A DNA stretch of 30,402 nt from IMG/VR virus record IMGVR_UViG_3300017912_001693, positions 1-30,402 of that record, one strand, 5' to 3'. This document shows, in pieces, positions 3,491-22,224 of this stretch (its first letter is position 1; each line of letters starts with the position of its first letter). Made by a program: the position numbers and the translations under genes. The notes under the pieces are model-generated. The model had not been told where the DNA came from, did no database searches, and saw nothing but the letters and a program-made list of their open reading frames with translations. The DNA is from a virus (Duplodnaviria; Caudoviricetes).

Positions 3491-5644
3491 TTATCCACCT
3501 ACTTGTTGTAGAGCCTGTAATAATTCTGGAGGTAGTTGTTGTTGCTGTTGGGGCTGTGGCTGGGGCTGCGCCCCACCACCTGTAGGCGCACCTTGCTCAC
3601 CCGGTGCCGGTGCTTGCCCAGTGCCTATCGTGCCACCACCTGTACCCATCGGGTCTTGACCAACCGCCGCTTCAGATTGCTCTGCTGCCATCTGTTGTTG
3701 CATTTGCTGTAGCAGCATAGCCTGACGGAAAGCCTCCTCGGGTGAGTTGGCAACCTTATCTACATCCAAATCCATCGTTGCAGCGATCTCGCGCATGATG
3801 TATGGGAACTTCGCGAACGGTGCTAACACAGGGTTACTAGCAATCTGCAAGAAGCTGATTAGACGCTGTGAGCGGACTTCGTTTTGCATGAAACTTTCAG
3901 TGCCACGAGCGCGGATTTCTAGGTCGCCTTTGATCTCTGGATCAAAATCAAATTGCATGTTAAATGCAAACATCGCCTCGCCTAGCGGACGCAACAGATA
4001 GTCATCGAAGTTTTTGATGACGGTTCTGATAGAGCCACTAGCTGCACCCATTAACATAGAAATGCCTGATGCAGTTCGACCAGTGCCGGTCACGCCTGTT
4101 TGACCATAAGAAAAAGAGGGCAGACCCGAAGACTCGTCAGCTAAAACTCGCGCCTTATCAAACAGCATCATGTTTTCGCTAGACACATTCGGGAACTTTG
4201 TGCCAAATATAGCCTGACCCGGTGCGCCACCTTGACGGCGAAAAACTTTACCAGGATACACAGTTAGATCTTGACCTGGTGTTAGGTTAGACTCATCAAC
4301 TTCAATCAGCAGGTTGCCTGATAGGACAGCGTTGTCCACCGCCAACCGCATGAAACCATTCATCAGGGTTTGCGTGTCGTCCATGTTTTCAGCCAACCCG
4401 ACACCGAAGAACGAATACGGGTTAACTTCATAAGGAGTCGCGAAGTAAGGGATTCTTTTAGGCGTGAAAGGGTTAATAACAAGCCGGAGAACTTCTCCGT
4501 TACAGACCCAGCAATTGATTTGAACTTCGTCTTCATCTTTGTAATCATCAGGAATCTCCAAGTTATTATCGCGAGCGATCTGTGCGTCGATGGTCCCCCA
4601 GAACTCTAGTACCTCAAATCTTTCAATATCTGTGCCGGAGTAAGCAGCATTACCCTCTGCCGTCTGGTTATCATCCAGATCGTTCTCCCACCACTCACGG
4701 GTGTAGTCGGGACCATATTTGATTGCTTCTTCGATAGCACTGGATCTAAAGTACGGACGCTTCTTAAGGTAACGCATCTGAGATCTAGTCATGCGATGAC
4801 GCTCCACAACGTAATCACAATCGTACATGCTATAAGCGTCAGGGTCTGGGTAGAAGTTCCAGAGAGAGGTGTACTCAACTTGCGGAACTGTTTTTAGTGT
4901 AGGGTCATATTCTCCGTTTTCATTCCAGTTGGAATATTCTTTGTCGAAAGCAAACGGCCCTTTCATGATACCGGTGCCAAACGCCACGCACTCAAAACAA
5001 CTGAAGCGTAAATGCCGGGTAGCAGCAGACTCTTCTAACTGATCCTTAATTTTCTTTTCCATCTTTTTAGCGGCAACCATAGCCGGATGGAATGTGATAG
5101 CGGATGGTGTAACCCCTGGCCCCTCTTTCAAACCTTCGATATTCTCAAGGTCATCTTGCAGCGGACCTAAACGATCTCGTAAAGTGTCTACAGTATCGCC
5201 AGGTTGTAGATCCTTACCGTCACCAGGGAACCCGTAAACATTAGAGAACTGCTCCATAGCGGCATTGTCTTGCACTTCTTTGGGGTCGAAGTGAACTGTG
5301 TCTGCTACACCTTCTGGTAAAGTGGTAGGCTCAACACCGATAGGAAATCTATTTTGACTGAACAGAACGTCGATTAGCTGACCGTAAGCAGCCAGCACTT
5401 TCGTTTTCGTAACCTTAATAAAAACACGCGACTTTTCAGTATCAGTGAACTGAACATCAGGGCCATAAATGCCACGATAGTTTCTGTACGCTTGAAGCCA
5501 CCGCGACTCATCGTGATATCTCGCGTCCTTTGCTCTCTCAAATCTATCTTCAATATAGCTAACTATATTGCTATATTCACCGCGCCCCTCGTCTCCGGTA
5601 TCGTCTAAAACATTGATCGTTTCGTTTTCGTATTGTTCTGCCAT
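3491..5644 (-). CDS. Portal protein
   Basis: 717 aa directly after TerL; motifs SRVFIKVTKTKVLAAYGQ, PYEVNPYSFFGVG, GRTASGISMLM; Gln/Gly/Pro-rich tail. Confidence 0.9.
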   Translation of the reverse strand: MAEQYENETINVLDDTGDEGRGEYSNIVSYIEDRFERAKDARYHDESRWLQAYRNYRGIYGPDVQFTDTEKSRVFIKVTKTKVLAAYGQLIDVLFSQNRFPIGVEPTTLPEGVADTVHFDPKEVQDNAAMEQFSNVYGFPGDGKDLQPGDTVDTLRDRLGPLQDDLENIEGLKEGPGVTPSAITFHPAMVAAKKMEKKIKDQLEESAATRHLRFSCFECVAFGTGIMKGPFAFDKEYSNWNENGEYDPTLKTVPQVEYTSLWNFYPDPDAYSMYDCDYVVERHRMTRSQMRYLKKRPYFRSSAIEEAIKYGPDYTREWWENDLDDNQTAEGNAAYSGTDIERFEVLEFWGTIDAQIARDNNLEIPDDYKDEDEVQINCWVCNGEVLRLVINPFTPKRIPYFATPYEVNPYSFFGVGLAENMDDTQTLMNGFMRLAVDNAVLSGNLLIEVDESNLTPGQDLTVYPGKVFRRQGGAPGQAIFGTKFPNVSSENMMLFDKARVLADESSGLPSFSYGQTGVTGTGRTASGISMLMGAASGSIRTVIKNFDDYLLRPLGEAMFAFNMQFDFDPEIKGDLEIRARGTESFMQNEVRSQRLISFLQIASNPVLAPFAKFPYIMREIAATMDLDVDKVANSPEEAFRQAMLLQQMQQQMAAEQSEAAVGQDPMGTGGGTIGTGQAPAPGEQGAPTGGGAQPQPQPQQQQQLPPELLQALQQVGG

Positions 5645-5653
5645 TGTAAATCC

Positions 5654-7474
5654 TTAATATCCAAACCTAGAATCAGAGGGCGCCCATCTTGTTTTTGGCA
5701 TATTATCAAACGCGGTTCGCAGGTTTGTAGGGCGAGATGAAACCATGTAACGCAAAGCATCGTAGGCGTGATCCTCGGCGTTGGTATCTACGTCTTCAGC
5801 ATTGCGCTTGTCTAAAGGAATAGACGAAATCTGGTCGATGATATTTCTACAGTTAGAAAAAAATCTGAGGCCGGGTTCACCAGTATCCTCGTCTTGCATC
5901 AGCCTTTTATGGATTTCGATTTTACCGCTGACGCGCGAGCCTGGTGATCTATCAGAGGGTCGGAACCTACAGCCTTCCGCATTAAGCATCTCTGCGATGG
6001 ACGGGCCGCGATCACCTCGTCTTGCCCAGCAACTGCTATCTAAGACAGCATCGTAGATACGGCCATCACCTAACTCTAAATCGACTATCTGGCGACCTAG
6101 CTGGTCGGCTGTCAATCGGTTGACATATAGCTCTCTATAAATCCATATATTATCGTCGTAATCAACAGCGCCCCAAAGGACGGCAGAATGAGAAGCAAAA
6201 CCAAAGTCAGCAGCACGAATTTTAGTCCAGCCGCTAGGAATCTCAAACGGATCGACAACATGGATTGATTTGTTAAACTCAGGGAACGCGCCATCTGCTA
6301 CGATATCCCAATCACCGTAAAGATACTGTTGCTTCATTACATCAGGTAACTGAGCCAGCATCGTAACATAGCTATCGTCTTGGGTAAGATATGGATTATC
6401 CCACACAGACGCCGGAATAAATTTACGGGTCAACTCTGCGGTGAGTGTCTTGCCGTCTAGTTCATACTCTACTTTTTCAGAGAACCGCGTGTTTGGTTTA
6501 GCCGGAGAGATGAATAGTTCTTTTACCCAGCCTGACCCCCTGTTGCCGGGGTTGCCGGTGGCCCGCATATGTAGCGGGATGGTAGGGTCCGCAGAACGCA
6601 AAGAGGATCGTAAGAAATACCAAATATCTGGGGTTGGGTATTGTGGTAACTCGTCAACCCCTATCCACGAATACGACTGACCTTGATAACGCAGAACGTC
6701 CTGCAAGTTTTCGCAATACCCAAACTCGATTCTTGCACCGCTGGGAAAGTGCCAAGTATTTTCTTGAGTTTTAAACTTCGCACCTGGGACCGCTTTCGGA
6801 TAAATTTGCTGAGTCTGAAAAATAACATCTCTCAGTTCCGGCATCGTGCGTCGAATTAATAATGCACGAGAGGTAGGCTTATCCACAAACCGTAAAGGAG
6901 CAATAAGCAAGCTATAAGTTTTGCCACCCCCACGAGCGCCACCATAAAATACTTCCCTCTCGTTTGATCTGAGGAAATCAGTTTGAGGGCCAGGGTTAGG
7001 GCGGAACGCAACTTCTCTATTATCTTCAACAGGCAAATCCTCAAAAGAAATGATGTTGGATGGAGAGGTCGTTTTCTTTTTAGCTCTATCTAGGCGGCGC
7101 TTCGCCTGGTCTGCTTTAATCCTAGTTTGTTTCTCAGTTTGTTTAAGATCCTCCAGCTTACGCTGAGTAGGAGTGAGTTTCTTACGGCGTTTTTTTCGCC
7201 GGTCTTCAAGCTCTTCTTCTGTCCATGAAAGTTTATGTAATCTAGTTCCCGATAGTTTTCGACCTGTTTCTGTTTCCAACCACGCTGCAACAGATCTAAC
7301 CGAACGTCCTGCTCGAACATGTTCAATCGCCTCACCCAAAAGTTCTAACGCCTTTGGATCTGGAACGTGCCAACCTACGCCGTCCTCATCTACCTCTCTA
7401 TCAAAACCAAACGGCAGTTTACCTCTGGCTTTGTATTTTTCAGACCGGAGATGATTAATCTTCGGGTGAGCCAT
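5654..7474 (-). CDS. terL: Terminase large subunit with an N-terminal HTH-like extension
   Basis: Walker A YGGARGGGKT, Walker B IGVDE, ATGNPG, nuclease DFG and EDHAYDALRY. Start 7474 preferred over 7480 because of SD (GAGG) spacing. Confidence 0.93.
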   Translation of the reverse strand: MAHPKINHLRSEKYKARGKLPFGFDREVDEDGVGWHVPDPKALELLGEAIEHVRAGRSVRSVAAWLETETGRKLSGTRLHKLSWTEEELEDRRKKRRKKLTPTQRKLEDLKQTEKQTRIKADQAKRRLDRAKKKTTSPSNIISFEDLPVEDNREVAFRPNPGPQTDFLRSNEREVFYGGARGGGKTYSLLIAPLRFVDKPTSRALLIRRTMPELRDVIFQTQQIYPKAVPGAKFKTQENTWHFPSGARIEFGYCENLQDVLRYQGQSYSWIGVDELPQYPTPDIWYFLRSSLRSADPTIPLHMRATGNPGNRGSGWVKELFISPAKPNTRFSEKVEYELDGKTLTAELTRKFIPASVWDNPYLTQDDSYVTMLAQLPDVMKQQYLYGDWDIVADGAFPEFNKSIHVVDPFEIPSGWTKIRAADFGFASHSAVLWGAVDYDDNIWIYRELYVNRLTADQLGRQIVDLELGDGRIYDAVLDSSCWARRGDRGPSIAEMLNAEGCRFRPSDRSPGSRVSGKIEIHKRLMQDEDTGEPGLRFFSNCRNIIDQISSIPLDKRNAEDVDTNAEDHAYDALRYMVSSRPTNLRTAFDNMPKTRWAPSDSRFGY

Positions 7475-10828: not shown

Positions 10829-11010
10829 TAGTATTTAGCCATTTTACCTTTTCTGGCAGTCATGGTTTTTTTCTTCTTCATCGCAGTACCACCACCCATT
10901 TTTTTCATGGTGGTTTTCTTGGTCATCATTTTTTTACCTGAATGTACTGGCATTTTCTTCATTCCCCCTTTTCTAGCGCCCACTCTATTGGGCAGGTTAA
11001 TCACTGGCAT
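10828..11010 (-). CDS. Lys/Met-rich small protein (60 aa)
   Basis: MPVINLPNRVGARKGGMKK...; start moved from track position 11058 to ATG 11010 (GAGG upstream) because the upstream part belongs to the Cys-rich ORF. Confidence 0.7.
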   Translation of the reverse strand: MPVINLPNRVGARKGGMKKMPVHSGKKMMTKKTTMKKMGGGTAMKKKKTMTARKGKMAKY

Positions 11011-11095
11011 CTTCTGCCTCTCTACTGTGACACTCACATTTGCACACAGATTCATCACAGTTAACTTCTACGCAGCTATCACACCTATCTGTCAT
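10997..11095 (-). CDS. Cys-rich metallothionein-like peptide (32 aa)
   Basis: Not in the track. MTDRCDSCVEVNCDESVCKCECHSREAEDASD; ATGA overlap with the upstream gene, GGAGG SD. Confidence 0.6.
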   Translation of the reverse strand: MTDRCDSCVEVNCDESVCKCECHSREAEDASD

Positions 11096-11382
11096 AGCAC
11101 AGGGCCTCCCTCGTTCCATTTGGTTCGATGCGCCCAGTATTTAGCAGACAACTTAGTTTTTGGTGCAGCGCCGTGCCGAGCATAGTAAGATTTCTTTCTA
11201 GCCTTATCCTTGGCTGTTTTAGGGTTTTTACCAGCACCACGCACACCCTGTTGTCCGAAACGGATCAGCTTGACCTTATCACCTTCTTTTGCTAGAACAG
11301 CATGACTCTTAGTTTTATGCTTTGGGGTACGTTTAGGTTTGTTATATCCAGAAAACGTCTCACCCCTTACAGTGATAGCCAT
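11092..11382 (-). CDS. Small basic conserved protein, first gene of the leftward operon
   Basis: 96 aa, GYNKPKRTPKH...KLIRFGQQG...ARKKSYYARH...SAKYWA, ending WNEGGPVL. Confidence 0.8.
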   Translation of the reverse strand: MAITVRGETFSGYNKPKRTPKHKTKSHAVLAKEGDKVKLIRFGQQGVRGAGKNPKTAKDKARKKSYYARHGAAPKTKLSAKYWAHRTKWNEGGPVL

Positions 11383-11391
11383 GCGTCCCTC

Positions 11392-11430
11392 AAAAAAAGT
11401 AGGGGCTACCCGTCGATATGAAACGCCCCT
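11392..11430 (-). terminator. Intrinsic-terminator-like hairpin directly upstream of the first late RBS
   Basis: Minus strand AGGGGC-GTTTCATATCGACGGGTA-GCCCCT-AC-TTTTTTT, then GAGGGACGC-ATG. Confidence 0.5.
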
Positions 11431-11531
11431 TTAAAAATAGTTTCTGCAATCACCAAACCAGAATAGGTTAAACTTGCACACCCAAGCCCCGCAAGACAGA
11501 GATACACAAGCCAACGGGTAATTTACGAAGC

Positions 11532-11560
11532 ATTATACACTATATAATTTTAAATGTCAA
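11532..11560 (-). promoter_or_regulatory. Sigma70-type leftward promoter
   Basis: Perfect TTGACA-17-TATAAT; shares TTTTTACTTGACA with the capsid promoter. Confidence 0.85.
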
Positions 11561-11708
11561 GTAAAAAGTTTATATATTAGCAAAATATCTGTATCTGTAC
11601 AAGAGTTTTATGCCGTAGTTGGCTGAGAATAACTTTATATTATATATAATCTTATATTTAATATAATTTATTAATAAATACAATTCCCCTCGTAAATCAT
11701 ATATCAGA

Positions 11709-11760
11709 TTTGATACTTCGTTTTGATACTTCGTATCAATCTAATACAAAGATTGTATCA
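11709..11760. repeat. TGATAC repeat cluster (13-bp tandem repeat plus inverted repeat)
   Basis: TTTGATACTTCGT at 11709-11721 and 11722-11734; TTGATAC-TTC-GTATCAA at 11723-11739; another GTATCA at 11755-11760. Confidence 0.8.
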
Positions 11761-11780
11761 TATATAAATTAAAAAGTCAA
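11752..11780 (-). promoter_or_regulatory. Second leftward sigma70-type promoter
   Basis: TTGACT-17-TACAAT with an extended -10 TG. Confidence 0.65.
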
Positions 11781-12108
11781 GCAAAAAACACATATATGAG
11801 ATAACTTTTTTGGTAAACATAATTCTGTACAGATAAATACCGGGTTACCCGCCCCATGTGTTGACATTGATTTTTTAGAATTTTGCATAATGACGTAACG
11901 CATACCACCCAGGGGCCAGGTGGCGACCGCCCCGGCCTAGGCATTTTGAAGGTTTGAGGGTTTTAGGGCCAGGCCGGCGACCCTTTTTTTATTATTAGGG
12001 CCGGCCGGGGTCTCCGAGGCTATTCCAGGGCCAGGAATTAGGGTTTTTTTCGACACAAAACAGGCCGACCCCGTCTCTTGCTAGATAGTACACCCACAAC
12101 CCTATTTG

Positions 12109-12148
12109 CCGACCAGGTAACCGACCAGGTAACCGACCAGGTAACCGA
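12109..12148 (+). repeat. Tandem 12-bp repeat CCGACCAGGTAA x3
   Basis: Three exact copies at 12109-12144 plus CCGA; a degenerate copy (CACCAGGTAGCCG) near 12157-12169. Confidence 0.9.
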
Positions 12149-12319
12149 AAACGGCTCACCAGGTAGCCGCGTCCTTTGGTTGTATTTCTAACTAACTTAT
12201 TGAAAACAAACAAAACCGAAAATTTTTTTCCAAAAAACTAAAAAAAAATCTTGACAGGTTTTCGGATGGTAGAATATCAAATCCTTAGTTTCGTCAATCT
12301 AACCAAATGGAGAGAGATC

Positions 12320-13219
12320 ATGACCAAGAAAGCATTCAAAACCACCAAAGAGCTTCAAGCCGACGTTGCCAATGCGGTGATCGCCCAAATGCAAACCCAC
12401 GGCACAGACTGGTTGAAGTCATGGCAAGGCGTTGCCGGTATGAACCCTCTGAGCATGTCCACCGGTAAGAATTACCAGGGCATCAACTGGGTCATTCTCA
12501 ACATGTACCGCACTGCGCGAGGCTATTCTTCTCACCAATGGGCTACGTTCAAACAGTGGAAGACCCGTGGCGCCTCAGTCAGGAAAGGTGAGAAAGGCGT
12601 TGGCGTGGTTTTCTATAAGTCAATCACGATTGAAGACAAAGAGACCGGCGAGGAAAAATCTATTCCAATGCTCAAGTTTTACACCGTGTTTAACTCCGAG
12701 CAAGTTGACGGATACACAGACGAAACCCCGGCGTTTGTTCCGCGTAATGATGTTAGCGTCGCGGATGAGTTTACCGCGCAGTGTGGCGCCAAGGTTCAAA
12801 ACGTAGACTTAGCCTCCGCCCATTACGCTCCAGGGCCGGACCATATCAATATGCCCTATCTCCAACAATTCGACACACCGGAAGATTACCAGGCAACATT
12901 GTTGCATGAGTTGACCCATTGGACCGGTCACAAGTCTCGCCTGGATCGCTTCTATAAAAACGAAGACCGCACCAAAGACTACGCGATGGAAGAATTGGTG
13001 GCTGAATTAGGTTCCGCCATGTTGTGCGGGTCTTTGGAAATATCTTCCACGCCTCGCGTCGACCATGCCAAATATCTTAATAATTGGATGCAGGCGCTCA
13101 AGAATGACCCCGGCGTCATCTTCAAGGCCGCCGCCGCCGCCGCCAAAGCCACCGACTATCTGGTGGCCCTGGCCAACGAAACTAAGGCCGACGCCGCCAA
13201 GGTTCAGCAAATCGCTTGA
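12320..13219 (+). CDS. ardC: ArdC-family antirestriction protein (ssDNA-binding domain + zincin-like metallopeptidase)
   Basis: TGKNYQGIN, WATFKQWK..GASVRKGEKG, YTVFNSEQVDG, LLHELTHWTGHKSRLDR, YAMEELVAELGSA. Start ATG 12320 after GGAGAG, not the track TTG at 12251. Confidence 0.9.
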   Translation: MTKKAFKTTKELQADVANAVIAQMQTHGTDWLKSWQGVAGMNPLSMSTGKNYQGINWVILNMYRTARGYSSHQWATFKQWKTRGASVRKGEKGVGVVFYKSITIEDKETGEEKSIPMLKFYTVFNSEQVDGYTDETPAFVPRNDVSVADEFTAQCGAKVQNVDLASAHYAPGPDHINMPYLQQFDTPEDYQATLLHELTHWTGHKSRLDRFYKNEDRTKDYAMEELVAELGSAMLCGSLEISSTPRVDHAKYLNNWMQALKNDPGVIFKAAAAAAKATDYLVALANETKADAAKVQQIA

Positions 13220-13304
13220 GGTTCTTACAATGGGCCGGGGTTGTATCAGACCTCGGCCTATGATAAGACCCTTAACCAACCAACCAACCAAACGGAGAGA
13301 CACC
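13217..13304 (+). repeat. Intergenic hairpin-RBS element, copy 1
   Basis: TGA-GGTTCTTA-caa-TGGGCCGGGG-ttgtatcaga-CCTCGGCCTA-tga-TAAGACC-ctt-(AACC)n-AAACGGAGAGA-cacc-ATG. Confidence 0.9.
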
Positions 13305-13562
13305 ATGAAAATCACCCAAGAAAAATACGGCGACCGCATCATGTTGTACGCGGGGGACTACACTATCCCGTGCTATGGCGAGCTTGACCAAACCGCCTCT
13401 ATCTCGGTTGAGTTCTATGAATATTTCGGGCCTTTGCATGACACCGTGCATAAGCAAAAGATTAAGAAACCTAGCGGCGCGGCTACATGGTCCGATGTTT
13501 TGAAACACCTTGTCGAAAAACGTCTTTTTGATCTGTGCGATATTGGTGCCTTATCAGCTTAG
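13305..13562 (+). CDS. Hypothetical early protein (85 aa)
   Basis: MKITQEKYGDRIML...; SD comes from repeat 1, and its stop TAG is the first triplet of repeat 2. Confidence 0.85.
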   Translation: MKITQEKYGDRIMLYAGDYTIPCYGELDQTASISVEFYEYFGPLHDTVHKQKIKKPSGAATWSDVLKHLVEKRLFDLCDIGALSA

Positions 13563-13641
13563 GTTCTTGAGGCTGGGGCAGGGTTGTCATATCCTGCCTC
13601 AGAACAAGACCCTTAACCAACCAACCAAACGGAGAGAGACC
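13560..13641 (+). repeat. Intergenic hairpin-RBS element, copy 2
   Basis: TAG-GTTCTTG-agg-CTGGGGCAGGG-ttgtcata-TCCTGCCTCAG-aa-CAAGACC-ctt-(AACC)n-AAACGGAGAGAG-acc-ATG. Confidence 0.9.
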
Positions 13642-13863
13642 ATGATTGAAGAGTTCAAAAAGGGTGATGAGGTCATTGTTAAAATTGGAAAGTCCTCTGA
13701 TAGAGAACTACAACAACTATCTAAAAAATTCGGTGATACTGCCAGCGGTGTAGTTATAGGACAAACTGGTAAAATCGTTATGATAAAAACTAATAAAGGA
13801 CAAATAAATCCTTTTATAAAAGATGTTATGAAAGAAGAAATTGGCCCGGCTTCCGGTGACTAG
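13642..13863 (+). CDS. Hypothetical early protein (73 aa, AT-rich, possibly SH3/KOW-like beta fold)
   Basis: MIEEFKKGDEVIVKIG...GVVIGQTGKIVMIKT; bounded exactly by repeats 2 and 3. Confidence 0.85.
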   Translation: MIEEFKKGDEVIVKIGKSSDRELQQLSKKFGDTASGVVIGQTGKIVMIKTNKGQINPFIKDVMKEEIGPASGD

Positions 13864-13942
13864 GTTCTTGATGATGGGCCGGGGTTGTCTTACTCTGGCC
13901 CATAACAAGACCCTAGAAACCAACCAACCAACGGAGAGAGAC
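13861..13942 (+). repeat. Intergenic hairpin-RBS element, copy 3
   Basis: TAG-GTTCTTG-atg-ATGGGCCGGGGT-tgtctt-ACTCTGGCCCAT-aa-CAAGACCCTA-ga-(AACC)n-AACGGAGAGAG-ac-ATG. Confidence 0.9.
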
Positions 13943-14296
13943 ATGGACAAGATCACCACCGACAACCAACTTGACGCCTACTGCTTGGACCTTGCCAAGA
14001 GTATCGTTGAGGAAACTAAGGATCAGGAGCGCCGCCGAGATTTGGCCCACGAATTTGCCGATCAATCAGAGCATGTGATCTATTATGGCAATGCCCATTC
14101 AATCTGCCAGCATTGCGATATTAGTAACGGCGAGGATTTTTTCGACGAGTGTTACGATCACGGGCCGATCAAGAGCTATGACGAGATCGCGACCATCATG
14201 GCCTATGGTGAAATGCAGTCCCGAATTTTATCGGCGTTAGATAAGATCGAGGAAGAGGCCGACGATGACCTTGAGGAGGAGGCCGACAATGACTGA
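13943..14296 (+). CDS. Ocr-like (T7 gp0.3-like) acidic DNA-mimic antirestriction protein
   Basis: 117 aa with about 33 D/E against 9 K/R; DLAHEFADQSEHVIYY resembles T7 Ocr DAIHMAADNAVPHYY (recalled); acidic C-terminal tail; early position. Confidence 0.65.
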   Translation: MDKITTDNQLDAYCLDLAKSIVEETKDQERRRDLAHEFADQSEHVIYYGNAHSICQHCDISNGEDFFDECYDHGPIKSYDEIATIMAYGEMQSRILSALDKIEEEADDDLEEEADND

Positions 14297-14423
14297 GGCG
14301 GTGTGGACGACACTGCTCGCGGGTTTGGTAGGGTTTATGCTCTACCTAGCCGCCGCCTGGGTTGCCCAAGATATGTTTCCGGCGGATGTTTTAATTCTGC
14401 AACAATCGGAAACCTTGTCATGA
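14289..14423 (+). CDS. Small membrane protein (44 aa)
   Basis: Not in the track. MTEAVWTTLLAGLVGFMLYLAAAWVAQDMFPADVLILQQSETLS; GGAGG SD; overlaps both neighbours. Confidence 0.7.
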   Translation: MTEAVWTTLLAGLVGFMLYLAAAWVAQDMFPADVLILQQSETLS

Positions 14424-14527
14424 CTGAGGCGCTTGGAGTAATCTTAGTCATTGGGTTGACTGCTTCCGTAATTTGGTTAGCCGTTGACCAACTGCAATCT
14501 ATCATCAGAGGAGAGTTCAACCAATGA
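14420..14527 (+). CDS. Small membrane protein (35 aa)
   Basis: MTEALGVILVIGLTASVIWLAVDQLQSIIRGEFNQ; ATGA coupling at both ends. Confidence 0.7.
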   Translation: MTEALGVILVIGLTASVIWLAVDQLQSIIRGEFNQ

Positions 14528-14640
14528 AAACGCCAACCTATAACAAGAAGGCCGTGGATGCGGCAATCAAACGCGACCCCCGTATCAAACCGAAAGAGGC
14601 TAAGGCTATTCACGCCTTGTTAAAAGGCCGCCGGGGCTAG
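14524..14640 (+). CDS. Small basic early protein (38 aa)
   Basis: Not in the track. MKTPTYNKKAVDAAIKRDPRIKPKEAKAIHALLKGRRG; GAGGAG SD; its stop TAG begins repeat 4. Confidence 0.75.
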   Translation: MKTPTYNKKAVDAAIKRDPRIKPKEAKAIHALLKGRRG

Positions 14641-14714
14641 GTTCTTGAAGCTGGGGCGGGGTTAATATACTCTGCCCCAGAACAAGACCCTACAACCAAA
14701 AACGGAGAGAGAAG
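14638..14714 (+). repeat. Intergenic hairpin-RBS element, copy 4
   Basis: TAG-GTTCTTG-aag-CTGGGGCGGGGT-taatat-ACTCTGCCCCAG-aa-CAAGACCCTA-caaccaaa-AACGGAGAGAG-aag-ATG. Confidence 0.9.
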
Positions 14715-15008
14715 ATGACGGAAGATAATGTGGCAAACCCCGACAAAAAAACCGTGGGTGACCTAGCCTTTGATGACATGGTGACCAAAGTTTTACAGAC
14801 CAATTGGTCATTCGTTCAACGGTTAGTGCGTAATGCGATGAGCGACGTTGAGGGTGATGCGGACTGCACTCAGGAAATAGGTTACCTTTCGAGGTCTGCG
14901 CTTTGGTGTGTGCTAGAGGACCTGATGGACGCAGAACAGGCGCTTGAAAAGATTGAAAAGTTCCAACAGAAGTTTGACATGACCCAGACGGAGAGTGGAG
15001 ATGAATAA
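14715..15008 (+). CDS. Hypothetical early protein (97 aa)
   Basis: Starts at the RBS of repeat 4; acidic, helical composition. Confidence 0.8.
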   Translation: MTEDNVANPDKKTVGDLAFDDMVTKVLQTNWSFVQRLVRNAMSDVEGDADCTQEIGYLSRSALWCVLEDLMDAEQALEKIEKFQQKFDMTQTESGDE

Positions 15009-15300
15009 ATATAAATCGTACCTAATCTTCCCCAAGGCTATCCAACAATTCAAATCGAAGTGGCCGGCCAATGGGTTTGACGAGGAATTGCACACCATTC
15101 GCTTTGAACTGGATGCCGGCGACAATCTGGTTGACATTGAGTTTCAAGACTACGATACCAACCCTCTTGATGATGAGGCGTTTGACGACTACGCCATTGG
15201 CGCACTGATCGAAGACGCTATCATCTATGGCTTAAACGTAGGCGAGAACCGGTTCAATAGGTTCTATGTGTTCAACCGGTATCATGTGGGAGATAAATAA
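15001..15300 (+). CDS. Hypothetical acidic early protein (99 aa)
   Basis: ATG 15001 after ACGGAGAG; TAATG coupling to the next gene. Confidence 0.75.
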   Translation: MNKYKSYLIFPKAIQQFKSKWPANGFDEELHTIRFELDAGDNLVDIEFQDYDTNPLDDEAFDDYAIGALIEDAIIYGLNVGENRFNRFYVFNRYHVGDK

Positions 15301-15539
15301 TGCAGATCGCTTTCGTTGGATATATGGACATTACGCGCGACGACCTTAAAACCTTAGCGAGGGAACATGAATTGCCAGTGATGGAGAAAGAGTCGCCGGA
15401 TGACTATGCAGTCCGCCTTTGCAATACAATCTTGGATCGCGCTATTCAAACATCTTGGACCGTTGTCGAGATATCAAACCATGAGGTAGATGAGACAAGC
15501 GATTTCGACGATGAGCGCACGGAGGGTGCGCGATGGTGA
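15300..15539 (+). CDS. Hypothetical protein (79 aa)
   Basis: GGAG SD; coupled to its neighbours. Confidence 0.7.
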   Translation: MQIAFVGYMDITRDDLKTLAREHELPVMEKESPDDYAVRLCNTILDRAIQTSWTVVEISNHEVDETSDFDDERTEGARW

Positions 15540-15721
15540 CCGATCTTTTCATCTATTTGTTTCTGTTCGTGATGCTGTTCGTTGTCGCAATCGTAATGGT
15601 GGAGCAGTACTACATCATTCGAGAGATCATGGACGACATCAAACTTGCGAACAGGGTCATCGAAGAAGCGGACAACAAGAATAGGTGCGACAGTTTGTCG
15701 CAGGCTAAACCGATTGAATAA
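15533..15721 (+). CDS. Small membrane protein (62 aa)
   Basis: N-terminal hydrophobic run LFIYLFLFVMLFVVAIVMV; GGAGG SD. Confidence 0.65.
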   Translation: MVTDLFIYLFLFVMLFVVAIVMVEQYYIIREIMDDIKLANRVIEEADNKNRCDSLSQAKPIE

Positions 15722-15754
15722 GCTGGACAGCTTCCTAAAAGACCCCCAACCTTT

Positions 15755-15782
15755 AGAGACGTTTCGGCGTCTCTTTTTTTTT
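15755..15782 (+). terminator. Rho-independent terminator closing the early region
   Basis: AGAGACG-TTTCGG-CGTCTCT followed by a run of T. Confidence 0.85.
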
Positions 15783-15795
15783 GTTGAGGTGCGAA

Positions 15796-16023
15796 TTGAC
15801 CCGAGTAAACGATGGATACTTTGAATGGGCGAAGGCGGTCATCGAAGCTAACGACCGTCGAGACACACCGTGTAAGGGAGTTTGTAACTATTCTAATGAA
15901 CAGGACAAATGCCTAACATGTCACCGAAATTTATCTGAGATTACCGCGTGGCCAAACCTAACCAGGTCAGAGCGACGCGAGATGATGCAAGCGATCAGAG
16001 CGAGGCGAGATGAAACAACCTAA
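15796..16023 (+). CDS. DUF1289-like small Cys protein
   Basis: TPCKGVC...CLTCHRNLSEITAW...SERREMM pattern; start uncertain (TTG 15796 after GAGGTG). Confidence 0.7.
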   Translation: MTRVNDGYFEWAKAVIEANDRRDTPCKGVCNYSNEQDKCLTCHRNLSEITAWPNLTRSERREMMQAIRARRDETT

Positions 16024-17314
16024 CAGACAGGCATTCGGGGATGCAGAGCAAGCCGCCGTGGCTGAGGTCATGAAATACTATAGCAGCAAAGGCGAAGACC
16101 CACCGTATCAGGGCAGGTTTGAGCGACGGTTTGCACTCCGGTTTGAGATGCAGATGGATGGCGGGTTTGCTGTCCCGGTAGCGACGGGAACTGGAGCTTG
16201 CTATCTAGCGTTAGCCGCACTCAAGACCTTCTATAATCTACCGGACGGGTCCGAGGTTATCTTGTCCCCGGTCACCGACAGCGGGCCATTAGCGGCAATC
16301 GTTGCGCTAGGCTTTGTTCCGGTCATCGCTGATGCAGCGCCCGGTTCTTACAATGTCAACCGGCAATCCATTATAGACTGCGTGACGGATCAAACGGCGG
16401 CGGCCTTTGTTGTCCATGCAGCCGGTGCGCCGGTCGAGGATATCCCGCAGATTGCTGAGGATTGCGCCAGCAGTGGTATATATCTTGTTGAGGATTGCAG
16501 CCAAGCCCCGTTCGCCATGCCTAAAAGCGTGGCTTATAGTTTTGTTGGTCAGTTTGGAGACATCGCCGCCTTCTCTACCATGTACCGCAAGACAATCCAA
16601 AGCGGGGCATCCGGCGGGTTGGTGTATATCAAAGAGGGTGGTCAAGCTGGGCTGGGCAATCATGTTCTGGCACACAAAGATCGCGGCAAACAAACCTGGC
16701 GGTCAGACTTAAATCAAAATGACCCAAGCAATGCGCTTTTTCCTGCGCTGAACTGGAACACAGATGAGTTTTCTTGCGCGATAGGTGAGGCAAGTGTAAA
16801 GCGAGCGCATGAAACTATAATAAAACGCAACGAATTTGTCGCTCAACTAAAGAAATTACTTGACAAATGCAGCGAGGTATGCTCTATACCAGAGGGCTAT
16901 CACGATGGACACTCGCCATTTTATTTGCCAATTATTGTTGACGAGAAAAAAATCAACGTCACCAAGACAGAGTTTGCTGAAGCCGTACAAGCCGAAGGTG
17001 TAGGCTTATTACCACACTACGGTTGCTTAGTGAGCGACTGGGAGTGGGCGGCTGATTATATTAATTGGCAACCAACTCAAAAATATTCAGAGGGTTACGC
17101 GCCTCACGCGGTCAGGACCCCAAACGCCAGAGCGATGCGAGACAGCACGTTTAACCTGTTTCTAAATGAGAACTATACCAAACAGGATGCTGTGGAAATC
17201 TTGCTGGCGATAACAAACGTCGAGGAGAGAGTTGTTAAAACTCAACCACAGGGGGGTAAAGGTGTTGAGCAAGTTAGAGCAACTCGTATGGAAAGAGATA
17301 CAGAAGACGGCTGA
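16010..17314 (+). CDS. DegT/DnrJ/EryC1/StrS-family PLP-dependent sugar aminotransferase
   Basis: VATGTGACYLAL, GSEVILSPVT, VHAAG, LVEDCSQA, and GDIAAFSTMYRKT.SG.SGG with the PLP lysine. Confidence 0.9.
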   Translation: MKQPNRQAFGDAEQAAVAEVMKYYSSKGEDPPYQGRFERRFALRFEMQMDGGFAVPVATGTGACYLALAALKTFYNLPDGSEVILSPVTDSGPLAAIVALGFVPVIADAAPGSYNVNRQSIIDCVTDQTAAAFVVHAAGAPVEDIPQIAEDCASSGIYLVEDCSQAPFAMPKSVAYSFVGQFGDIAAFSTMYRKTIQSGASGGLVYIKEGGQAGLGNHVLAHKDRGKQTWRSDLNQNDPSNALFPALNWNTDEFSCAIGEASVKRAHETIIKRNEFVAQLKKLLDKCSEVCSIPEGYHDGHSPFYLPIIVDEKKINVTKTEFAEAVQAEGVGLLPHYGCLVSDWEWAADYINWQPTQKYSEGYAPHAVRTPNARAMRDSTFNLFLNENYTKQDAVEILLAITNVEERVVKTQPQGGKGVEQVRATRMERDTEDG

Positions 17315-17411
17315 ACAGTCTGAAGACCCGAAACAATTTTGGGAATACTTTTATCGGTTCCGCTACGCAATCCGCAGTAAGGTAGAAAGATACTGGGAGG
17401 ACAAACTCTAA
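17262..17411 (+). CDS. Possible small protein (49 aa)
   Basis: GTG start; LSKLEQLVWKEIQKTAEQSEDPKQFWEYFYRFRYAIRSKVERYWEDKL; TAATG coupling to the next gene, but it overlaps the aminotransferase tail. Confidence 0.5.
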   Translation: MLSKLEQLVWKEIQKTAEQSEDPKQFWEYFYRFRYAIRSKVERYWEDKL

Positions 17412-18421
17412 TGTTCCGATCACCAAACGAAACTTTGTTTTGTGTCTATGACCTAGCCATTGCGCCGATCACGTTTGACTTCATGCACTTTGCTGTGAAT
17501 TGTGAGATGGCGCGGGCAGCTAACAACGCAAAGTATATCCACTTTGTATTTGTGTTAGGTCCAGACCGGACATGGCGAATGCAGACACCGAAGGATGGGT
17601 CACTCACCACTGAAGAAAAGATGTGGCGGCTGAAGCATATACTAGAACCAATCGCCCGCATGACACCAGAATACGCTGGTCACTCGGTCTACCTTGATAG
17701 AAACGAGGCAGCTAAAGAACTCGCAGCTTTGCCAGGTAGTCTGATCTGGCCACCGTCCTATCATATCAACCAACCAAACAGCGCGTTTATGTTGACACAG
17801 GTGGTTGATATTTATGGGCAGGTGAAAGAGAAGGACCAAGGCATCACCCCGGTTTGTCTTAAGCCTTGTCCAGAGGCCGTGAGGTTGGCAAGGCTATGGT
17901 GTGACAAGCAAGATGTCGATACCGAGCATATGGTCACAATCACTGTGCGCCAATCTAATATTGAGAAAGAACGCAACAGCAACCTGCAATCGTGGCTACG
18001 GTTTGCAAGAGAGATTTTAAAAGAAGGCTGGCATCCCGTAGTCATGCCCGACACCGAGCAGGTTGTTGTCCATGATGCGGATGACTTGCATGATCTTAAG
18101 GTCTATTGGCCTGGGCCAGTAAACTTAGACCTACGCGTGGCGATGTATCATTTGGCAGCTTACAACCTCAGTCACAACGGTGGGCCGGCTGCGTTAAACT
18201 TCTTCTTGCCGGGTTCTAAATACCTTCAGTGGTTACCCGTCGATGCGTTACCAAAGGTAATCGAAGCTGAGGGAGAACAAGGACAAGAGAGATTATTGGG
18301 GTTGAAGAAAGGCGAGGACTATGACTTCGCAGAAGGAATCAAAAAATACGTGTGGGACAAAGCGACCTACACAAAAATCTACAAGCGGTTCAACGAGTTC
18401 GTGGAAGAAACGAAAGATTGA
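17411..18421 (+). CDS. Putative glycosyltransferase-like (GT-B fold) protein
   Basis: 336 aa. The C-terminal half VTITVR...RNSNLQSWLRFAREI..EGWHPVVM...LRVAMYHLAAYNLSHNGGPAAL resembles the donor-binding domain layout of GT-B (GT9-like) enzymes; adjacent to a sugar aminotransferase. The ORF is solid, the function is inferred. Confidence 0.55.
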   Translation: MFRSPNETLFCVYDLAIAPITFDFMHFAVNCEMARAANNAKYIHFVFVLGPDRTWRMQTPKDGSLTTEEKMWRLKHILEPIARMTPEYAGHSVYLDRNEAAKELAALPGSLIWPPSYHINQPNSAFMLTQVVDIYGQVKEKDQGITPVCLKPCPEAVRLARLWCDKQDVDTEHMVTITVRQSNIEKERNSNLQSWLRFAREILKEGWHPVVMPDTEQVVVHDADDLHDLKVYWPGPVNLDLRVAMYHLAAYNLSHNGGPAALNFFLPGSKYLQWLPVDALPKVIEAEGEQGQERLLGLKKGEDYDFAEGIKKYVWDKATYTKIYKRFNEFVEETKD

Positions 18422-18961: not shown

Positions 18962-19037
18962 GCTCCCTTAGCTCAATGGATAGAGCAACAGCCTTCTAAG
19001 CTGTGGGTTGCAAGTTCGAGTCTTGCAGGGAGCGCCA
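18962..19037 (+). tRNA. tRNA-Arg (anticodon TCT)
   Basis: Acceptor GCTCCCT/AGGGAGC, D arm GCTC/GAGC, anticodon arm ACAGC-CTTCTAA-GCTGT, T arm GCAAG-TTCGAGT-CTTGC, encoded CCA; 76 nt. Confidence 0.96.
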
Positions 19038-21571: not shown

Positions 21572-21582
21572 GGAGAGGTGTG

Positions 21583-22224
21583 ATGAATATAATTATATGT
21601 GGACCAAGATGGCGTAACGACAATATAGCTATCTATCTTAGACAGCGTGGTCACACTGTCATGATTGATAACGAGAGACGGCTTTTGACAGACCTAGACA
21701 ACGGTTTGACGGCTGATCTGATTATCAGCAACGGGTTTGGACCTATCTTCAAGCCCCATCATGTTGAGAAACATAATATCATTAACATCCACCCAGCTAG
21801 TTTGCCTCACGGACGAGGCATCTATCCTAATGTGTGGGCCTTATACAACGGCACTGCGATAGGTGTGTCTATCCACCAGATCGACGAAGGCATTGACACC
21901 GGCGACATGCTGGCAAGTGACTACATGCAGCACTGGGAGCTTGAGTGTAGGCTTAACAACCCTGCCGAAACGCTACAAACCTTTTATGACCACCTGCTGC
22001 GTCGAGCAGAGTATCTTTTCTATGCAACCTGGCCTCGGATAGAAGACGGCACCATCGTGCCATATCAACAGGCCCCCGGTGGGTTTCAGCATTACAAAAA
22101 CAGAGAGCAATCTGAAAAGCTCATGGGCCTGTTCGCGGATCGGTGGGCAACCCCAATCAAGATTGTTCACTTAGCAGGTCAGATGGCGCGGGAGGCTACC
22201 AATGCCCCAATATACAGTGATTGA
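21583..22224 (+). CDS. N10-formyl-THF-dependent formyltransferase (Fmt-like/sugar N-formyltransferase-type N-terminal domain)
   Basis: IINIHPASLPHGRG.YPN.W and GVSIHQIDEGIDTGD catalytic motifs; lacks the Fmt C-terminal tRNA-binding domain; overlaps the polA start. Confidence 0.88.
   Translation: MNIIICGPRWRNDNIAIYLRQRGHTVMIDNERRLLTDLDNGLTADLIISNGFGPIFKPHHVEKHNIINIHPASLPHGRGIYPNVWALYNGTAIGVSIHQIDEGIDTGDMLASDYMQHWELECRLNNPAETLQTFYDHLLRRAEYLFYATWPRIEDGTIVPYQQAPGGFQHYKNREQSEKLMGLFADRWATPIKIVHLAGQMAREATNAPIYSD

Follow-up and report, generated by a model that had tools for sequence, protein, structure and literature searches.

The window analyzed here, the whole of IMG/VR record IMGVR_UViG_3300017912_001693, is a 30.4-kb phage contig (30,402 nt) in which terminase, portal and other late genes run leftward from ~11.4 kb and replication genes run rightward. 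On its + strand four short elements (E1 to E4) alternate with the gene of the anti-restriction protein ArdC and a set of small open reading frames (ORFs), as follows.

12320..13219, + strand: ArdC anti-restriction protein (ArdcN and MPTase domains), 299 aa
13217..13304, + strand: element E1, 88 nt, subtype with a 2x2 internal loop; predicted cut 13263/13264
13305..13562, + strand: cassette gene A2, 85 aa, absent from the array of a close relative
13560..13641, + strand: element E2; predicted cut 13604/13605
13642..13863, + strand: cassette gene A3, 73 aa
13861..13942, + strand: element E3; predicted cut 13905/13906
13943..14296, + strand: cassette gene A4, 117 aa, predicted Ocr fold, acidic (33 D/E against 9 K/R)
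14289..14640, + strand: three short overlapping ORFs of 44, 35 and 38 aa, 86-100% identical in the relative
14638..14714, + strand: element E4, 77 nt; predicted cut 14682/14683

The four elements are real and well beyond chance. An earlier note, made from the sequence, had described them as 77-88 nt units running from stop codon to ATG, and all four are present at these positions with that layout: the first bases are the stop codon of the upstream ORF (TGA in E1, TAG in E2 to E4) and each element ends at the next ATG. Folding recovers the outer stem with its U.C mismatch (8-11 bp), a small internal loop that is 2x2 in E1 and 3x2 in the others, an inner stem and a 6-nt loop, in all an irregular hairpin of ~21 pairs. 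The inner stem is GC-rich as claimed, although it measures 12-13 bp and not 10-12 bp. A nearly G-free leader (0-1 G) follows, and GGAGAGA precedes the ATG; the (AACC)n repeat ascribed to the leader is slightly overstated for E4, which has a single AACC. Fold energies of E1 to E4 are -36.0, -29.9, -35.2 and -34.7 kcal/mol, with z-scores of -5.2, -2.6, -4.5 and -5.6 against 200 shuffles.

The close relative, which represents a second array genotype, carries six further copies. Among the resulting ten copies, whose hairpins are 64-98% alike, the internal loop is 2x2 in three and 3x2 in seven; in the relative the stop codon overlaps the element in 4/6 copies and lies 1-10 nt ahead of it in the other two. 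Across the ten, pairing is kept in 96.3% of cells, and both partners differ at 5 of 19 pairs; 0/500 shuffles reach this, a figure that is not a probability, since the structure comes from these same copies, which are related to one another. Covariation is found in the inner stem (5 of 12 pairs change on both sides) and the outer stem is nearly invariant; the covarying stem pairs quoted in the earlier note (TCTTA/TAAGA against TCTTG/CAAGA, and others) exist in the sequence. Its claim that G-U pairs make the structure strand-specific stands for the window, where every inner stem has two such pairs and folding favours the + strand over the - strand by 6.5-10.9 kcal/mol, but is weaker in the relative, where the gap is only 0.6-7.8 kcal/mol and one copy has no G-U among its first 12 pairs.

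Two known kinds of RNA element do not account for these hairpins. A terminator reading is rejected, as the earlier note had argued, because no copy of the ten has a U-tract after the hairpin (1-3 T in 10 nt), and a hammerhead reading because the hammerhead core is absent. The possibility of an already described family had also been raised; Rfam 15, hammerheads included, gave no match at the gathering threshold in the window's array, and at E<=5 over 11000-17500 only a chance microRNA match.

Gene content between the elements

The second genotype is represented by L057, L223, L279 and L267, whose shared parts are 99.99-100% identical, and a further locus, L222, is of the window's type (99.2%); only these two array genotypes were assembled. 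They are 83-96% identical outside the array and 91-94% in the blocks flanking it. Within it, the window reads ArdC, E1, 85 aa, E2, 73 aa, E3, 117, 44, 35 and 38 aa, E4, 97 aa, and the relative, with a copy of the element (E) at each of six junctions, reads 92 aa, E, ArdC, E, 108 aa, E, 136, 44, 35 and 38 aa, E, 139 aa, E, 96 aa, E, 103 aa. The 85- and 73-aa genes are without counterpart in the relative's array, as are its 92-, 108-, 139- and 96-aa genes in the window. Even where counterparts exist, the ArdC alleles are only 51% identical and the 117/136-aa pair 26%. Invariant content in relatives had been named by the earlier note as evidence against exchange, and content between the elements differs.

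Individual copies carry traces of such exchange. The upstream flank of E4 matches that of the relative's copy 4 (27/30) and its downstream flank that of copy 6 (20/30), all other pairs giving 2-16/30, which places the gain or loss of two cassettes inside E4. The E2 hairpin is identical to the relative's fifth copy at 54/55 nt, although the two stand between unrelated genes. A2 and the relative's 96-aa gene each have one homolog, that of A2 being 4 aa longer at the C-terminus; in both cases divergence is confined to the last 2-4 residues, at the start of the element. Contigs from other studies in Logan, of which 24 of 73 loose ends were compared by eye with the flanks over the covered parts of the stretch, appear to add further arrangements: X4 joins the end of an unknown gene before an E1-like copy to the start of the relative's ArdC after one, and in X9 the E4 position has an unknown end on either side, the pairing as one contig being presumed in each case. 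Crossovers in the repeats would account for these exchanges.

All four element junctions are content boundaries, and the gain, loss and replacement of genes between elements in a close relative support the idea of exchangeable cassettes, of which the elements may be the cause. Several boundaries weigh against giving them that role. Four of the eight element-free junctions in the same region are boundaries too, and with only two genomes the enrichment at elements is indistinguishable from chance. The left content boundary falls 140 nt before the promoter, away from the elements, the 117/136-aa swap ends rightward at a plain ribosome binding site (RBS; 14271), and two indels, a 79-aa ORF missing in the relative and a 57-aa ORF present there, are not flanked by elements. 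Within the window's own genotype, 12 of 13 differences between the window and L222 over 12100-16200 cluster in 90 nt of ardC (12991-13081), a sign of a recombined patch.

How the hairpins might act

On balance, the elements are fairly likely to be processing sites for RNase III and, at the same time, seams at which genes are exchanged. From the cut outwards, the E. coli enzyme prefers W-W', A-U, A-U/U-A and G-C; one set of these proximal box pairs suffices to fix a cut, and the helix beside it has a minimum of 11 bp (PMC1540722). An older consensus after the cut reads NAWGNNCWCUNW (PMC4357697). The distal box varies between substrates and between species, and a single cut is known to leave the upstream piece with a 3' hairpin (PMC3867540).

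Past the internal loop, the 3' arm of the elements reads Y-A-A-G-A-c-C-C-T in 10/10 copies, with A-U, A-U and G-C at positions 2-4. Positions 2, 3, 4 and 7 of the published consensus (N-A-W-G-N-N-C) match in all ten, the conserved mismatch falling on a free N. With the box placed on the hairpin from the text of PMC1540722 rather than its figures, and with E. coli preferences that may not be those of the host, the proximal box (G-C, A-U/U-A, A-U) is found in the outer stem of every copy and not in the inner stem. The chance of A-W-G-N-N-C in one register is 0.008, the ten copies counting as one event. Inner (12-13 bp) and outer (8-11 bp) stems give the two turns of helix and the 11 bp that the enzyme needs, and an internal loop, of the kind that confines cleavage to one strand, is present at the target site. 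A single cut is predicted 32-41 nt before each ATG.

The RNA-hairpin reading of the earlier note thus gains from the box match, and a more distant relative, G001 (L389), lends it independent support. Its DNA polymerase is 73% identical and its left-hand genes are homologous; in an equivalent gap it carries a type II hammerhead (RF02276, 37.3 bits, cut-off 37), at L389:4598-4664, which starts at the stop of the first early ORF and fills the gap to the second. Two later gaps of G001 hold stop-hairpin-RBS structures unrelated to the elements (z -4.6 and -2.3). They belong to a small gap family of its own, at 5448-5532 and 6161-6233, with a truncated copy at 6421-6472.

If this is correct, the host polymerase would make one message of ~3.5 kb, from ~12280 to a terminator at 15755-15783. 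RNase III would bind each hairpin of ~21 pairs, read the proximal box (YAAG) in the outer stem and nick the 3' side of the internal loop. At the equivalent position of the inner stem, which is sensitive, a G-C pair would suppress a second cut and so leave the 3' hairpin on the upstream piece. That piece would retain a protective 3' hairpin, and the downstream piece would begin 32-41 nt before its ATG with a near G-free leader and its own RBS. Because leader, RBS and ends would all come from the elements, any gene between two copies would be expressed alike. Crossovers in the 55-nt repeats, by ordinary phage recombination and without an integrase, would drive gene exchange.

Several features of the hairpins count against RNase III cleavage. 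The pair next to the predicted cut is C-G in seven of ten copies (3/4 in the window) and U-A in three, and C-G at this proximal box position is a catalytic antideterminant in E. coli, with a 7-fold effect and binding unaffected (PMC1540722). Consensus positions 8-10 match only with a 1-nt gap, a canonical distal box (UA/UG) by E. coli rules is found in 0/10 copies, seven copies can also be read as weak promoters, and the G001 hammerhead scores at the cut-off and sits in a different genome. The E. coli rules may not apply to the host of this phage either way.

The antideterminant would also fit hairpins that are bound and left uncut, or that block exonucleases or lock up the upstream coding end, so that the RBS is kept open and translation is uncoupled from the preceding gene. 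Leaders holding 0-2 G agree with such insulators, and AC-rich leaders without hairpins of this kind are common before Ocr-like genes of other phages. This explanation leaves unaccounted for the near-invariant outer-stem sequence at the box against a covarying inner stem, and we regard it as improbable.

A somewhat better prospect, though still an unlikely one, is that the copies, or those of the 3x2-loop subtype, act as weak sigma70 promoters, each with an overlapping stem-loop that attenuates upstream transcription, with recombination between copies shuffling the genes. Such cassettes are known as PeSLs (promoter-early stem-loops) and run from stop codon through a promoter with an overlapping, G-T-containing stem-loop to Shine-Dalgarno sequence (SD) and ATG (PMC2839356). 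Neither this precedent nor the promoter-like sequence had been considered in the earlier note, and the former lowers the novelty of the elements. Seven of the ten copies read TTGA(G/T/A)G-17-TAYYYY, with 7-8/12 consensus matches, six copies retain the final T, and the base paired with it is A in some and G in others, and the predicted start lies within ~3 nt of the predicted RNase III cut. However, no window copy passes a 9/12 scan threshold, whereas the phage's own perfect TTGACA-17-TATAAT sites occur at 627 and 11560; the TTG is forced by the CAA of the stem, there is no U-tract and no AT-rich upstream stretch, and the three 2x2-loop copies score <=5/12. Those three flank ArdC and carry the better RNase III pair next to the cut. 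Promoter and RNase III readings may both hold, for different subtypes.

The cassette architecture, the stop codon inside the repeat, the strand-asymmetric pairing and the captured foreign DNA (see below) also recall integrons, in which single-stranded DNA sites are used by a site-specific recombinase. In attC sites the R'' box reads RYYYAAC and the R' box GTTRRRY. Neither box is present on either strand of the elements (0/10 copies), and an attC reading is rejected. No tyrosine integrase was found in the window or in 3/3 records searched, all incomplete and one 90% complete, DNA folding is weak and near equal on both strands (-12 to -14 kcal/mol), and the junctions do not fall at one fixed base. 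Integron-like recombination is largely refuted and very improbable. RNase III processing combined with recombination in the repeats remains the preferred explanation.

The early operon, its cargo and its distribution

Further features delimit the operon around the array.

12251..12280, + strand: promoter-like site TTGACA-18 nt-TATCAA at the head of the early operon, 10/12 consensus matches; putative function
12293..12322, + strand: leader and RBS resembling those of the elements, without a hairpin (family D2; only 19 bits to the element model)
14715..15721, + strand: last early ORFs of 97, 99, 79 and 62 aa
15755..15783, + strand: intrinsic-terminator-like hairpin with a T run, identical in the relative; likely early transcript end

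We infer one early transcript between the promoter-like site at 12251 and the hairpin at 15755-15783, with a terminator only at the end of the operon and none between cassettes. The DNA polymerase finds its best isolate matches, at 37-41% identity, in HMO-2011-type phages of Roseobacter, SAR116 and SAR11. As to other features of that type, the DnaJ-domain match is weak (E 0.0046) and the CXXCXGXG motif occurs once exact and once degenerate. The window phage resembles HMO-2011-like marine phages and looks like a podophage relative. The sequencing runs that contain the stretch are seawater metagenomes, 2/20 of which hold at least half of its words.

Elsewhere in the window, the perfect TTGACA-17-TATAAT promoters (597-633 and 11530-11566, - strand) share flanking sequence and drive leftward genes, and a third promoter-like site, TTGACT-17-TACAAT, lies at 11752-11780. 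Three tandem 12-nt repeats and a degenerate copy (12106-12160) stand immediately upstream of the early promoter, at the point where identity to the relative ends; with the AT-rich stretch to their left they may mark a genome-end region. A tRNA-Arg(TCT) at 18962-19037 lies between a helix-turn-helix gene and the primase, where HMO-2011-type isolates have an integrase; the relative has the tRNA too. DegT/DnrJ aminotransferase and formyltransferase-like genes beside replication genes (16010-17314 and 21580-22224) perhaps belong to a DNA or sugar modification pathway.

Of the cargo, the earlier note had spoken of anti-defence genes. This is supported for two of the six ORFs between 12320 and 14640, for which its ArdC and Ocr-like assignments hold, the former by a domain match and the latter by predicted fold. 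ArdC is clear. A4 folds, in a model, like T7 Ocr: with Foldseek the T7 protein is the top row (probability 0.77, E 1.1), and in a structural alignment it gives Z 8.4 at a root-mean-square deviation of 3.5 over 101 residues, the top six rows all being Ocr and the next scoring 5.5. The model has a pLDDT (predicted local distance difference test) of 75 from 5 sequences, and its Z is close to values that helical folds can reach by chance. A4 has relatives in 78 viral loci and no Pfam, PHROG or PDB sequence match. Both proteins would act against host defence, A4 possibly as a DNA mimic that inhibits type I restriction-modification or BREX, the role of Ocr.

A3 appears to be foreign. Its GC content of 0.35 (0.26 at third codon positions) compares with 0.44-0.53 (0.47-0.64) in its neighbours, and 13647-13843 agrees at 176/197 nt with an internal stretch of a 782-aa ORF from a different viral contig, whose matches among isolates are Melnitz (Kyanoviridae) and HTVC008M. 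All nine longer homologs cover one and the same 89% of A3, and among these and the 782-aa ORF an EEVELxE motif follows the A3-like segment in 10/10 and the full motif precedes it in 9/10. The T4 prohead protease recognizes L/I-X-E. In T4 and in giant phages, prohead proteases cleave on the C-terminal side of glutamate (PMC5694885), so this motif-bounded segment is likely one released polyprotein module. A3 was likely captured from the polyprotein of a T4-like phage by recent DNA transfer, in a direction suggested by base composition; E2 likely supplied its start, and E3 its stop and a tail of 7 residues. In the T4-like locus L296:1881-8158, several long ORFs consist of modules separated by EEV(E/D)LDE-type motifs, and homologs P0005-P0013 hold the same module in different module orders, possibly as head-packaged polyproteins cut by prohead protease. 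That A3 matches exactly one repeat-bounded module is a hint that polyproteins of this kind string together functional domains that are independent of each other. No homologs of A2 or of the relative's 139-aa gene were found in isolate phages.

The sequence family of the elements appears confined to a narrow lineage. Pattern scans covered viral contigs (one scan of 30 of 64 parts and one complete, with 101 stretches), metagenomes (28) and GTDB genomes (10); among the matches listed only two array genotypes occur, the others being single and unsupported by the element model (6 viral single-match loci were checked). The first 12-14 kb of HMO-2011, CRP-1 and CRP-345 gave no match to the model, nor did 32/33 polymerase-relative loci (many of which end short of the early region), 4/5 whole records or 77 loci that carry Ocr-like genes (best E 0.3). 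Elsewhere, long hairpins stand before Ocr-like genes no more often than before control starts (14/50 against 70/261), and B5 and P0015 led to no new array. Repeats of other kinds occur in early regions of this phage group. CRP-1 and CRP-345 (L225, L226) each have four copies of a palindromic, operator-like repeat of ~19 nt, one in or near the integrase gene, and related phages have early-region ORFs of 12-nt tandem repeats (V-R/W-D-Q tetrapeptide) and 6-nt repeats (L237:767-1400, 3769-4300 and further; L252:3-260).

Because the elements mark exchangeable early genes, two of them recognisably anti-defence, the remaining cassettes are candidate counter-defence proteins of an abundant marine phage group. 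A bolder and rather doubtful extension is that the array is an integrase-free gene-capture platform, in which RNase III-cut linkers, by supplying start, stop, leader and message ends, let the phage make free-standing early genes out of foreign DNA (here a single protease-delimited module from the head polyprotein of a T4-like phage), and the cassettes would amount to an inventory of anti-defence domains exchanged among phage families that are not related. In main texts of the open literature, no report combining RNase III, phage early region and cassettes was found for this phage group, nor one on prohead protease, internal proteins, polyprotein, T4-like phages and anti-defense, and the HMO-2011 group paper does not contain the words "RNase" or "hairpin". 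The four base-level cut predictions are cheap to test.

Comparison with known systems

The kind of element is known from T7 processing hairpins and PeSL linkers, while the sequence family is not in Rfam; what is new here is a prediction at the level of the RNase III box, an insertion within an element and a captured polyprotein module. The T7 early region has an Ocr-type gene in its operon and a single terminator at the end. Both features are shared by the array, as is the match to the proximal box, and A4 is like T7 Ocr (gp0.3) in predicted fold, size and acidity, although the two are only 14-19% identical and have no sequence-level match. The T7 signals (R1.1 and four companions) are irregular two-turn hairpins with an internal loop between early genes of one message, five in ~7000 nt (PMC3867540). 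In contrast to these, the window elements start on a stop codon, have a fixed leader and RBS and border variable gene sets; their distal box is mismatched, and their cleavage is predicted.

A cut RNA around variable phage genes has also been proposed for clustered hammerheads. These flank non-constant prophage genes, ardA included, and were suggested to cut long transcripts into gene-sized pieces (PMC3088659). The elements are similar in setting but lack the hammerhead core and would need a host enzyme.

The PeSLs of the T4-like phages RB49/phi1, PST/T4 and nt-1/KVP40 are intergenic repeats of ~80-100 nt that run from stop codon to SD/ATG with a G-T-containing stem-loop, and, as with the elements, close relatives differ by insertions, deletions and replacements at them (PMC2839356; PMC4122927). 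In the same descriptions, PeSLs have strong sigma70 promoters, an AT-rich upstream part and terminating stem-loops (PMC2839356; PMC4122927). Crossover between neighbouring PeSLs gives mini-circles. The window elements differ in that the promoter match is weak or absent, the helix is long and in two parts, there is no U-tract, and the phage is an HMO-2011-like podophage relative. The elements would thus join T7-style processing of the message with PeSL-style shuffling of genes, minus the promoter-terminator core of the PeSL.

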